A stretch of 64,000 nucleotides of DNA. It comes from Octopus vulgaris (lineage: Eukaryota). Positions 23,860 to 59,072 of the stretch are shown here, piece by piece. The notes below the pieces were generated by a model, which did no database searches, had not been told where the DNA came from, and was given only the letters and a program-made list of their open reading frames with translations. The first letter of the stretch is position 1; every line of letters begins with the position of its first letter. Both the position numbers and the translations under genes were made by a program. The stretch covers positions 31,992,001-32,056,000 of the forward strand of contig OX597827.1 in assembly GCA_951406725.2 (NCBI GenBank). The letters are read 5' to 3'.

Positions 23860-24257
23860 GGTATTTTTTGGTTATCTTACCGCCATTAAAAACTTGGGTC
23901 ATCTCCACCCAGCCACCCCGTTTTACGAGAAATATCGGTACTTCTGGTCATCTCCTCCAACTATAAAAATTGTTTAACCCTCAATAAAACAAGAAAAAAA
24001 TTTTTTTTTAATTATTGAAGATGAAAATGGAAAAAAATTAAACATCTTACTGAATCTCCTTTACTCTCCTTTATTCTTTTACTTGTTTCAGTCATTTAAC
24101 TGTGGCCATGCTGGAGCACCGCCTTTAGTCGAGCAAATCGACCCCAGGACTTATTCTTTGTAAGTCTAGTACTTATTCTATCGGTCTCTTTTGCCGAACT
24201 GCTAAGTTACGGGTACGTAAACACACCAGCATCGGTTGTCAAGCGATGTTGGCGGGA

Positions 24258-24320
<63 letters not shown>

Positions 24321-24663
24321 GACGGGCTTCTTTCAGTTTCCGTCTCCCAAATCCACTCACAAGGCTTTGGTCGACCCGAGGCTATAGTAGAAGACACTTG
24401 CCCAAGGTGTCACACAGTGGGACTGAATCTGGAACCATATGGTTGGTAAGCAAGCTACTTACCACACAGCCACTCTTAATAACATTTTTATAACAAATCC
24501 TACCATTCCTATCGACGAGGCCAAACGTCAACAATGTGTGGAAGTATTGAATCAAAAGGATCCAACTCTCTTGTCGCCATATTATCTCGATTTTTAAGTG
24601 AGGAGGTGACCCGATTTTTTAATGGCAATTTTTTAATGGGGGTGAGATAACCAAAAATGTTCC
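23860..24663. mobile_element. Mutator-like MITE with nested SINE A
   Basis: About 45-bp imperfect TIRs with GG..CC termini; exact 9-bp TSD taatcgaaa at 23851-23859 and 24664-24672. Confidence 0.82.
24055..24477 (-). mobile_element. SINE family A nested in the MITE
   Basis: Reverse complement of A. Confidence 0.92.
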
Positions 24664-38793: not shown

Positions 38794-39200
38794 ATATATG
38801 TCTTTTTAATTAAAAATTCATTCCGACGGCCACCTGCTTGGTAGCAAGATTCTGAAGGGAAGCATCTTGCTTTTTCTCATCCTTAAAATCTTAAAAAAGT
38901 TTCGCAGTTTTATATTGTTCCTGATATCTTGATTACTTGTAGTGTATGAATTAACGAGTTGAAACCTTTTCCCCAAGAACCCCAAGTCCGCACAGGTTAA
39001 TACATATCCAGTTAATTCAATAACTTCCGGCGTGAAACCAAACGCTTTTCGCCTATATTTTCCTGACTATATTGGTGTCAAGGGGGCATCTGGTTTCCAC
39101 AACAGAACATGTTTTGCTTTGTGGACCCAGACAACAATATCTGAACGATACATACATTATTTACATTTGACGGATATTTGTCCTCATCTTTTTTGTTGTT

Positions 39201-39246
39201 AACACAACGTTTCGGCTGATATACTCCCCAGCCTTCATCAGGAGTC
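39201..39246 (-). ncRNA. Minimal type I hammerhead ribozyme motif, core intact
   Basis: GACTC-CTGATGA-A-GGCTG-10 nt-CAGCC-GAAAC-GTT-GTGTT. Confidence 0.8.
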
Positions 39247-39293
39247 TTGGGGAAATTTCGAACCTGGGTTCTCATTCGCAAGGTATTTTTCGA

Positions 39294-39353
<60 letters not shown>

Positions 39354-39483
39354 CATTATTATTGTTATTGTGGACATATGGCGTAGTGGTTAATAGCGTT
39401 GGTTCGATTCCAACAATAACAATAATAATAATACTTTCGAAATATACCTTAAGAATGAGAGCCCAGGTTCGAAATTTCCCCAA

Positions 39484-39529
39484 GACACATGATGAAGGCT
39501 GGAGGGTATTTTAGCCGAAACGTTGTGTT
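39484..39529 (+). ncRNA. Hammerhead motif, C3A-mutated copy
   Basis: GACAC-ATGATGA-A-GGCTG..TAGCC-GAAAC-GTT-GTGTT. Confidence 0.65.
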
Positions 39530-39879
39530 AACAACAAACAGGATGAGGACAAATATCCGTCGAATGTAAATACTGTCAATAATGTAAATAATGTAAATAA
39601 TTCCTTATCTCTTAAATATAGAACTGAATGATACATGTATGTATGTATGTATGTATGTATGTATGTATGTATGTATGTATGTTTGTAATATGTTTGTTGA
39701 TGAGAACCAGACCAGCTTATAGAGAAAAAAAAACGTGCTTGAGGAATATTCTGTATTTGGTGACTCTTTCAAAGAATTTCAATTCGCTTCCAGCTAAGAC
39801 TATTCAAAACAAATTGGATGCGGAATTGGTATAATTCTTATAGCGTCTGGTTGTACGACCCTCGGCGTTTGTTTCAGCT

Positions 39880-43599: not shown

Positions 43600-44330
43600 A
43601 GAAATTTGCTCAGCGGGTGCAAACCGGAGTCAAAAAGTTTTCACAAACAAGATCGATTTTTTAGTCTTAATATCAAAACAAACACACAATAATCCATTCT
43701 ATAGGCACAGGGCCTGAAATTTGTGGGAGAGTGTCAGTGGATTACAGCAAATCCCAGTACTCACTTTGTATTTATTTTACTGATCCTGAAAGGATGAAAG
43801 GCAAAGTCAACTGCGGCGGAATTCGAACTCAGAACGTGAAGACGGACGAAATACTTATTTCTTTACTACCCACAAGGGGCTAAACACAAAGAGGACAATC
43901 AAGGACAGACAAACGGATTAAGTCGATTATATTGACCCCAGTGCGAAACTGGTACTTATTTAATCGACCCCGAAAGGATGAAAGGCAAAGTCAACTTGGG
44001 CGGAATTTGAACTCAGAACTTAACGGCAGACGAAATACGGCTACGCATTTCGCCCGGCGTGCTTACGATTCTGCTAGCTCGCCACCTAAAACACTGGCGT
44101 AATAATAAAAGTAATTATTATTATTATCTTTGTACGTCAATCAAATCAGATGAATCCATAATTAGAAAAATGATATTTGAGACCAGTCTCAAAATGTTTT
44201 GACTCTCGTTCGTTTTAGCGACGAAGATTTTCAGGAGGATGTTCAAAGTGTTTTCATTGCTTCCCTCACCCAAGTTTTAAGGGGTGGCTTGCACCCCGCT
44301 GCACACCCTGTTCCAAGCCAACGAACCCGT
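43600..44330. mobile_element. Element X copy 2 with composite SINE B at 43695-44088 (-)
   Basis: Homology to 27575-28210; gggtgca..tgcaccc subterminal inverted motif. Confidence 0.72.
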
Positions 44331-57910: not shown

Positions 57911-58381
57911 GATATGTGTGTGTGTGCTTGTGAGTGTGTGTAAAATGTAGTATTTATAGGTTATAAGTAAAGAGCTTGTTGTAAACAGTAGCAAATATTA
58001 TTGCTACTCAACCTAAGGTCAGGCTTGTTTGAGTAGGTTTATGCTTAAAAAGCTGCCAGCATTCCCTCATGTCGTATATGGAAGAACCAAAGTGTTTGTT
58101 TTTCGTCATATGACGGGTAATTTTCGAAGTATGCTTTTCAACCATGGGTAATGTGAGAAAATAAGGCATGCACACGATAATTATAATCTGTTTCATCAAA
58201 TTTCTTGAAAATCATAAAAAATGATGAAATGAATACTAAATTTTCCAACAAAAACTATTTACTGCCTTAAAATAAAATTAAATCTAACAAGTTTCCCGTT
58301 TGTATGTTTGCAGAAAACGTTTTTGCTTAATTTTATCAACATCATCGCAGTCTATTTCACTGAAAAATATTGTTTTCTTTT

Positions 58382-59072
58382 TTTTACTCATTTCAATCAT
58401 TAGACTGCGGCCATGCTGGGGCATCGCCTTGAAAAATGTTTATCTGAATGAATCAACCCCAATACGCGCTCTTAACCGCTACGTCATCTGCCCATGGACA
58501 TATGGCGTTGTGGTTCAGAGCGCGGGCTGCTAACTCCAAGATTCCGTGTTCGATTCCAAGCAGTGACCTGAACATTAATAATGATAATAATAATAATAAC
58601 ATCGAAAAATACCTTAGGAATGAGAACCAGGATCAAAATTTCCCCAAGACACCTGATGAAAGCTGGAGGGTGTATCAGCCAAAACGTTGTGTTAACAACA
58701 AACAAGATGAGGACAAATATCCGTCTAATGTAAATAATGTAAATAATCTACATAATTCCTCATCTCTTAAATATAGAGCCCAGTACTTATTGCTATTATT
58801 TCTTAAACCAGGTACTTATTTTATCGGTATCTTTTGCCGAACCACTAAGTTATAGGAATGTGAACACACCGACACAGGTTGTCAAACGGTAGTTGGAAAT
58901 AAACTGACACAAATACATACACACACACGTCGAGCTTCTTTCAATTTCCGTCTACCGAACCCACTCACAGGCTTTTGGTCAGCTTAAGGTTATGGCAGGA
59001 GACATTTACCCAATTTGTCATGCAATGGGACTGAACACGGAAGTTTCTTACCACAAACCGCCCCTGTGCCTA
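58382..59072 (-). mobile_element. Diverged SINE A interrupted by family E
   Basis: A sequence at 58382-58465 and 58779-59072. Confidence 0.82.
58466..58778 (+). mobile_element. Family E: tRNA head, (AAT)n, HHR and tail, with a 30-bp inverted copy of the head
   Basis: A box tggcgttgtgg, B box gttcgattcc; HHR at 58648-58693 (G12A); TSD ccca(a/g)tac at 58458-58465 and 58779-58786. Confidence 0.87.

Follow-up and report, generated by a model that had tools for sequence, protein, structure and literature searches.

The ~290-bp unit found at positions 58458 to 58786 of the window (the whole 64,000-nt stretch of Octopus vulgaris DNA that was analyzed) is the terminal repeat (pLTR) of an element of the Penelope/Poseidon clade, its tRNA-derived head included. 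Of this we are nearly certain, because the unit bounds an ORF of 838 amino acids at both ends and contains the start of that ORF. The initial annotation had taken the unit for a SINE with a tail borrowed from a Penelope-type element (PLE), whereas all of it, the head included, is the terminal repeat of an autonomous PLE. It is thus a Penelope/Poseidon element whose tRNA-headed terminal repeat behaves like a source of SINEs. As an overall account, we consider it likely that this tRNA-headed pLTR carries a Pol III promoter and that the window copy was made by the element's own reverse transcriptase (RT) and endonuclease.

The repeat in the window and its family

All parts of the unit that had been described at 58458 to 58786 are present: A and B boxes, an (AAT)n spacer, a hammerhead, an AT-rich end, and a target-site duplication (TSD). 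The left TSD (58458 to 58465, forward strand, 8 bp with one mismatch) and the right TSD (58779 to 58786, forward strand) lie within an older SINE belonging to the commonest family in the window; the insertion splits this SINE into pieces at ~58374-58457 and 58779-59042. A partial, inverted copy of the head (58466 to 58494, reverse strand, family positions ~1-37, recognized by comparison with L143) stands head-to-head with the main arm, all of whose features are on the forward strand. That arm opens with the head itself (58496 to 58572), the 5' part of the pLTR, which has a decayed cloverleaf and is closest to host tRNA-Arg among 35 sampled tRNA sequences. By the box consensus, we take 58503 to 58513 to be the A box of a type-2 Pol III promoter (one mismatch relative to the family majority) and 58548 to 58557 to be the B box. 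An (AAT)n/(AAC)n spacer of variable length, often targeted by other elements, follows at ~58573 to 58599, and then the first ~55 codons of the 838-amino-acid PLE ORF (58620 to 58778, with its ATG at 58620 and a frameshift in this copy). The ORF start holds a minimal type I hammerhead motif (58648 to 58693, predicted scissile bond 58688/58689), 9-bp repeats at 58727 to 58753 (family positions ~250-271) that are the end zone of tail-less arms and a putative first RT start zone, and the optional Penelope "tail" (58754 to 58778, ending at family position 292-297), a putative second RT start site as also in PMC11167929. The AT-rich tail originally proposed extends to 58778 and is coding sequence. 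In the ribozyme of this copy, G10.1 and G12 are both A, and its hammerhead is therefore predicted to be inactive.

The second insertion in the window (39142 to 39636) has a 12-bp left TSD with one mismatch (39142 to 39153, forward strand), an inverted, tail-less arm of spacer and module (39154 to 39370, reverse strand), a main arm with an internally deleted head and a full tail (39371 to 39626, forward strand; ORF start at 39455 and hammerhead C3 changed), and a right TSD (39625 to 39636, forward strand). Because 39154-39626 is a single head-to-head pair within one TSD, the three copies first counted in the window are two insertions. Among the window's three arms, only the inverted arm at 39154-39370 has kept its hammerhead core. 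Two further abundant SINE-like families fill the window with many copies (e.g., 24055-24474 and 43699-44090) and served as controls.

The proposed Rfam check did not recover the ribozyme: neither a hammerhead nor a tRNA was found at gathering level in the whole window or at E ≤ 10 in the window copy and L148, and at E ≤ 1 the whole window gave solely microsatellite-driven matches among the 150 of 280 listed. ARAGORN did not detect a tRNA in the head of the repeat, even at a relaxed threshold. Direct comparison of the head with host tRNA-Arg gave 48 identical positions over 75 nt and a score of 13.5, compared with at most 6.5 in 2,000 shuffles, and the top four of the 35 tRNAs, a sample without several isotypes, were all Arg. 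On these alignments, the head is tRNA-derived, as had been claimed, and closest to tRNA-Arg among the tRNAs sampled; the A and B boxes are retained and the cloverleaf is lost.

In the assembly searched (2.8 Gb, 227 contigs), the window copy found 4,381 first-look candidates, 40 of which were scored, at 86-91% identity. A 29-mer from the 3' part had 6,370 exact matches (its reversed control had none), and a 29-mer from the head had 2,602 within two mismatches. These numbers give a rough estimate of ~33,000 modules and ~22,000 heads in the genome, calibrated on the small samples of 12/63 and 6/52. Non-CpG divergence from the family majority is ~5%. The Penelope-type minimal hammerhead of the initial annotation holds up: in tail-anchored arms spanning the motif, the catalytic core is intact in 57 of 90, and 54 of these 90 also retain at least four of five pairs in helices I and II. 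Helix III is palindromic, minimal type I features are present, and the commonest non-CpG core variant falls at the free N7. The motif is not better kept than its neighbors (0.944 vs. 0.952 and 0.962), which is expected for dead copies. The copies are too alike to show covariation, and in unconstrained folding the hammerhead fold was not favored in two of the three window copies.

The (AAT)n spacer has been struck repeatedly by other elements, with at least three recurring inserted sequences. One insert ends in a C-terminal motif that, translated by eye, we take to be of a Dong/R4-type LINE. Spacer insertions in L126, L128, L129, and L136 (~200 nt upstream of the spacer) were considered as a second family sharing the module under another head, but they are more probably LINE 3' ends within (AAT)n; further spacer insertions occur in L113, L118, L131, L147, L162, L170, L196, L215, L225, L231, and L340. 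Passenger copies, with the same flanks on both sides, lie in larger repeats or segmental duplications (L019, L027, L028; L156-L161; L230, L232, L233, L236, L237).

The coding element and its short copies

The search for a PLE partner of the 3' part, which had been recommended, found an ORF with RT and GIY-YIG domains and the unit at both of its ends; the 3' part is not a conventional LINE tail, being PLE ORF sequence that ends at two zones. Several unpaired copies have in common an upstream flank coding for the last part of this ORF. A BLAST match to head or module lay directly downstream at 28 of 30 ORF 3' end loci (five of the 30 are copies of one amplified segment), and the other two had the first 10-20 nt of the head. 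At loci with the 5' body of the ORF, the module lay directly upstream, in frame, in 28/30; L273 and L278 start with the head, and L293 is a true partial tandem. Altogether, 72 ORF-head junctions were counted, and an assembly or nesting artefact is thus very unlikely. A pile-up of 155 alignments (depth at least 21) yielded a 2,671-nt unit with one 838-amino-acid ORF, in the order head, (AAT)n, ATG, hammerhead, tail, ORF body (RT, GIY-YIG), stop, ~22 nt, and head again, so that the pLTR at each end carries the ORF start and the hammerhead. The ATG lies inside the "SINE" unit, upstream of the hammerhead.

Pfam RVT_1 was found in the ORF with an E value of 5.5e-10, and Pfam GIY-YIG gave no score on the single 362-amino-acid C-terminal copy scanned. 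The endonuclease is a putative one, called from the full-length alignment to homologues together with a putative GIY-YIG motif. There are 143 homologues of at least 815 amino acids, including an 836-amino-acid Anolis protein. Protein P0001, from a 2,758-nt contig, is 57% identical to the ORF and keeps the N-terminal peptide that is encoded over the hammerhead; its DNA would tell whether the tRNA head predates the octopus PLE lineage. In a tree of 19 proteins (16 of the 120 listed homologues, two Neptune ORFs, and the 838-amino-acid ORF), the ORF is sister to P0001 and apart from the Neptunes, which branch off at 100/100 on a long branch. Species, length, and N-terminus suggest that P0014 is Poseidon PAc. 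The longest stop-free frames are 465 and 569 amino acids; no intact copy of the ORF was seen, and the family is therefore probably inactive now.

All 17 non-Neptune loci fetched belong to the tRNA-headed family. Neptune PLEs, which are abundant and young in the octopus genome, were rejected as the partner: at 80 GIY-YIG loci, the unit was present only incidentally and the hammerheads were of another kind, and the unit is not shared. In one very young Neptune family (L061-L067, L074, L037-L060), an intact 781-amino-acid ORF is accompanied by an upstream ORF, the hammerhead has the U3-A8 variant of the core, and CRE-like and CCAAT-like words abound in a 3' minisatellite. A GIY-YIG element at L104 (C1, ~37.23 Mb) is unlike both Neptune and the tRNA-headed PLE and has a hammerhead-like motif downstream. 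Internally deleted PLE forms, consisting of a module, 230-330 nt of ORF body, and a module or head (L272, L276, L281, L283, L285, L296, L300), were seen in a sample selected for the ORF 5' region and are candidate non-autonomous derivatives or template-jump products.

The anatomy of the insertions was determined from 70 loci, taken from the 100 tail matches listed first for C1, less two duplicates (n = 68). An inverted arm lay upstream in 41 of the 68 and downstream in none. Where both arms of a pair reach the 3' part (40 pairs), the full tail was on exactly one arm in 37, on neither in three, and on both in none; arms ended 3' at family positions ~242-271 or 284-297. Exact flanking repeats of at least 7 nt accompanied 24 of the 40 pairs (7% of mismatched flank pairings) and 4 of 16 single arms (4% of mismatched flanks). 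Over all loci, 72 adjacent opposite-strand pairs were head-to-head and none tail-to-tail, as compared with 4:3 and 0:2 for the two control SINEs of the window, in loci that had been selected for the tRNA-headed family. Sharing of rare variants is 2.6 times higher between the arms of a pair than between random arms (0/2,000 permutations), which shows a common source but does not show fold-back. Inverted pairs, a one-sided tail, and TSDs are described as Penelope hallmarks (PMC8557442, PMC3846280, PMC11167929), and the suggestion that PLE machinery lies behind the insertions is thereby borne out. Short copies dominate the family and insert in Penelope fashion. At L195, both arms are tail-less and the flanks are inverted too, which marks a palindromic duplication of the locus and not a normal pair.

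In the mechanism that we propose, transcription would begin a few nucleotides ahead of the tRNA +1 and could read the whole unit, which is free of T4 runs. The enzyme would cut both target strands ~7-14 nt apart, and priming would occur inside the RNA at two zones, ~120-140 and ~165 nt into the ORF, as for Anolis Poseidon in vitro. SINE-sized copies would arise when uncut RNA is copied to its 5' end, and inverted pairs when priming happens twice or when the 5' palindrome folds back. On an RNA with two pLTRs, both minimal hammerheads could pair and cleave; an RT reaching the cut would then jump to the upstream piece, often imprecisely, leaving scissile-bond deletions in the ORF-linked copies that result.

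The short copies could instead form their own SINE lineage, in which Pol III transcribes solo copies up to the first T run of the flank and the PLE enzyme mobilizes these transcripts in trans. We judge this, which is compatible with the preferred mechanism, to be distinctly unlikely. It would explain why short copies far outnumber ORF-linked ones: by BLAST, ORF 3' sequence lies upstream in 6/68 tail-anchored insertions, and ORF-linked head arms number eight, counting remnants. The boxes are present in every solo copy, and the first T4 is a median of 116 nt past the tail 29-mer. The pLTR sequences alone sufficed for trans-mobilization in Adineta (PMC3846280), whereas Anolis Poseidon is reported to need the first 172 nt of the ORF (PMC11167929) and a solo copy has 165 nt. 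Position 8 is T in 29/55 short but only 6/34 ORF-linked copies; however, there is no other diagnostic substitution, the common variants are the same in both classes, divergence is equal (4.7% vs. 5.0%), and a common 9-nt length variant of the 3' part keeps the frame. Internal priming on the 5' pLTR of a full-length RNA would, moreover, yield the same product. With no subfamily split besides position 8, a separate SINE that shares only its 3' end with its partner is not what the copies describe, and the short copies of the PLE may have been re-transcribed and moved in trans as a SINE would be.

A Pol III-driven non-LTR retrozyme, amplifying via circular RNA monomers cut from tandem arrays, had also been offered, and we regard it as highly improbable. 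A type I hammerhead in a short unit would suit such an agent, animal retrozymes have been proposed to derive from PLE pLTRs (10.64898/2026.07.22.740005), and the deletions at the cut site described below could be ligation scars. However, the 68 insertions include no head-to-tail arrays (in one, a module in direct orientation lies upstream, separated by ORF sequence), unit ends are at the cleavage site in just 1 of 208 arms, the unit belongs to a coding element, and arms of one insertion that bear different scars (L279, L291) are better explained by repeated jumps than by a single ligated circle. Back-joints at the cut site were absent among 15 of 51 and 15 of 69 joints listed, from libraries ill-suited to circles.

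The head as promoter and the hammerhead cut site

From its sequence, we rather think that the head is the working promoter of the PLE. Among 64 head-bearing arms, 36 end at positions ≤14, 8 enter the ORF end, and 20 end at 15-69. The sense strand of the consensus has no T4 run in 2,671 nt, a deficit of modest P for this one consensus (0.02-0.03 by synonymous codon shuffle, 0.004 by third-position resampling), with 13 T3 runs (24 expected) and 4 near-terminators (8 expected). Twelve Neptune ORFs (~six families), the comparison set in place of head-less Poseidon, were near expectation in the T4 test (P 0.055-0.97). The 5' stops at the head and the T4-free sense strand fit Pol III transcription; the 5' pile-up could instead reflect an RT stop at a hairpin. 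RNase P-type processing at the tRNA 5' end is disfavored, as copies keep a leader upstream of +1 and the cloverleaf has decayed. Low Phe content as a sign of T-avoidance was also dismissed, since the ORF ranks 32 of 110 relatives and is not unusual.

Alternatively, the head may be a passenger: a simple tRNA+(AAT)n SINE would have landed between the stop and the start of a Poseidon element that kept its internal Pol II promoter, and short copies would end at the head through an RT stall at the 5' hairpin or a Pol II start there. We consider this unlikely, though it has several attractions. Drosophila Penelope is described with an internal TATA-less promoter (PMC2377424) and Adineta pLTRs with TATA/Inr motifs and 5' palindromes (PMC3846280), the head plus (AAT)n resembles a captured simple SINE, capped Pol II RNA solves the problem of translation, and T4 runs are somewhat scarce in one of the Neptune families as well (P 0.055-0.07). 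Conversely, the A and B boxes match the consensus despite the lost cloverleaf; of the 44 arms extending as far as position 15, 36 have their end in positions 1-14, just before the A box; the sense strand has neither T4 nor many near-terminators; and apart from the head itself and the spacer, only ~50 nt separates the stop codon from the ATG, leaving little space for another promoter.

Translation is the counterpoint to the Pol III promoter that we prefer, as uncapped RNA leaves that of the ORF unexplained, and autonomous partners of Pol III-driven elements are stated to require Pol II (Kojima 2024, PMC10886601). Cap-independent translation driven by self-cleavage is described in PMC13725137, but this mechanism does not fit the tRNA-headed PLE directly because the ATG is upstream of the cut. 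Unstranded RNA-seq from organism B gave no pile-up of starts or ends at the head or the scissile bond; 71-75% of its reads continue into unlike sequence, and only copies embedded in other transcripts are represented. RNA reads of L172:1425-1600 and L218:919-2420 (runs X21-X23) have many A>G / T>C differences that are absent, at depth, from the DNA contigs of other organisms and could be A-to-I editing of inverted pairs.

Deletions of at least 2 nt, counted without the similarity-selected arms of L001-L030, peak at positions 200-201, where they cover 29/166 arms with a tent-shaped fall-off; outside positions 190-217, no position is covered in more than five arms. The predicted scissile bond is deleted in 17/42 ORF-linked, 7/65 short, 3/48 head-less, and 2/11 5'-pLTR arms. 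The difference between the first two classes has a P of 0.0006, with most ORF-linked arms coming from targeted searches and a tail-anchored subset of 1/6 vs. 5/43. Matching 3-nt deletions were also present in the RNA reads from organism B (130/3,890 and 367/3,782 in X21; 93/3,127 and 315/3,042 in X22), which are read and not copy counts, and in contigs of organisms D and E among 12 of the 14 rows listed. Such a peak fits cleavage in vivo, and we lean slightly toward reading the deletions as cleavage scars. Slippage after insertion would strike both classes of arm alike, so a copying step is the better reading. Nevertheless, the site, being a GT micro-repeat, is prone to slippage, other deletions are also commoner in ORF-linked arms (13 in 42 vs. 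5 in 65), and six of the 3-nt deletions are identical and may descend from one master. Strand transfer within the head was also considered: head deletions were found in 21/45 ORF-linked vs. 8/50 short heads, the classes being unequally defined and the ORF background selection-biased. Arms whose 5' ends fall at the cut site are weakly enriched (14/77, P 0.04). Templates ending 3' at the cleavage site, in contrast, were seen in 1/208 arms, and the cleavage product was rejected as the template 3' end. U17 is a poor cleavage base. For Anolis Poseidon, cleavage is reported as dispensable in vitro, with no reads ending at the site (PMC11167929). Dimerization is described as a probable requirement of minimal hammerheads (PMC4209133); a two-pLTR RNA contains both of the motifs needed.

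Two Neptune subfamilies differ by ~6 nt just past the predicted cleavage triplet (L035, L037, L039, L060, and relatives), and L035 and L060 combine helix II of one subfamily with the short form; the same scar process may be responsible.

In its most complete form, our proposal is of an autonomous PLE whose 2.7-kb coding RNA would be made by Pol III from a captured tRNA promoter, so that a single repeat would serve as promoter, ORF start, ribozyme, and SINE, and whose deletions would record Penelope cleavage in vivo and the RT jumps that rebuild the repeat. We offer this full version only tentatively.

Significance and comparison with known systems

The role of the hammerhead in endonuclease-bearing PLEs has been called unclear (PMC8557442), and a scissile-bond deletion peak that is strongest in ORF-linked repeats would amount to a footprint of cleavage in the genome, open to search wherever PLEs are abundant. 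Pol III promoters in terminal repeats are described as known only for short non-autonomous elements, with autonomous partners expected to need Pol II (PMC10886601), an expectation that a T4-free 2.5-kb ORF behind A and B boxes challenges. Some annotated "tRNA SINEs" are PLE terminal repeats, which is a warning for annotation. Full-text searches of a library with few subscription papers listed no description of a PLE with a tRNA-derived pLTR or of deletions at a PLE hammerhead cut site.

The octopus SINE families OK, OR1, and OR2 were reportedly described by Ohshima and Okada in 1994 (cited in PMC4758252, PMC4824008, PMC10886601). What the unit has in common with these and other tRNA SINEs is the tRNA head and its A and B boxes, dispersed copies that are short and non-coding, and TSDs. 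One OR family is a CORE-SINE, although two citing papers disagree as to which. The repeat libraries of PMC13282606 and PMC8557442, or SINEBase, may hold the tRNA-headed family; the main text of PMC13282606 mentions neither the ribozyme nor Poseidon. The short form may already carry a SINE name (OR1/OR2, Repbase, Dfam, SINEBase). Unlike tRNA SINEs, its 3' part is from a PLE and not a LINE, it has no simple-repeat 3' tail, it shows head-to-head pairs with one tail, and its head is common to an autonomous element.

The schistosome repeat SMalpha carries Pol III boxes. SMalpha/Sjalpha is likewise a short SINE-like repeat with a type I hammerhead (PMC8490949), but the SMalpha hammerhead is canonical (PMC4209133), whereas that of the octopus is minimal, and no autonomous element sharing the SMalpha unit is described there. 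Animal non-LTR retrozymes (PMC7229834; 10.64898/2026.07.22.740005) share the type I hammerhead and the relation to PLE pLTRs; they are defined in these sources by head-to-tail tandems and abundant circular RNA, with no tRNA head reported. The TRIMp3 elements (Cassandra, Helenus, and Ajax; PMC10886601) also have a Pol III promoter derived from a small RNA, probably by way of a SINE, in their terminal repeats, with the boxes kept and the structure lost. They are, however, described as LTR elements that are non-autonomous, have PBS/PPT, and do not exceed 1.3 kb (PMC10886601), whereas the octopus repeat is part of an autonomous PLE whose ORF is 2.5 kb; as a coding PLE, the element is not a TRIMp3.

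The closest counterparts are the endonuclease-positive PLEs of the Penelope/Poseidon clade (Anolis Poseidon PAc, PMC11167929; Adineta Pen2, PMC3846280; overview in PMC8557442). As described in these sources, they share with the octopus element a single ORF of ~840 amino acids with RT and C-terminal GIY-YIG, a pLTR that holds the ORF start and a minimal hammerhead, an optional 30-40-nt tail at one end, an inverted 5'-truncated arm, a 5' palindrome in the pLTR, 8-10-bp TSDs, and partial tandems. The scissile-bond deletion peak, in contrast, is a feature of the octopus PLE that these accounts do not mention. Described Penelopes have TATA/Inr or TATA-less Pol II promoters, whereas the octopus pLTR opens with a tRNA-derived head, A and B boxes, and (AAT)n, its pLTR-only copies number, by rough estimate, in the tens of thousands, and its sense strand is free of T4.
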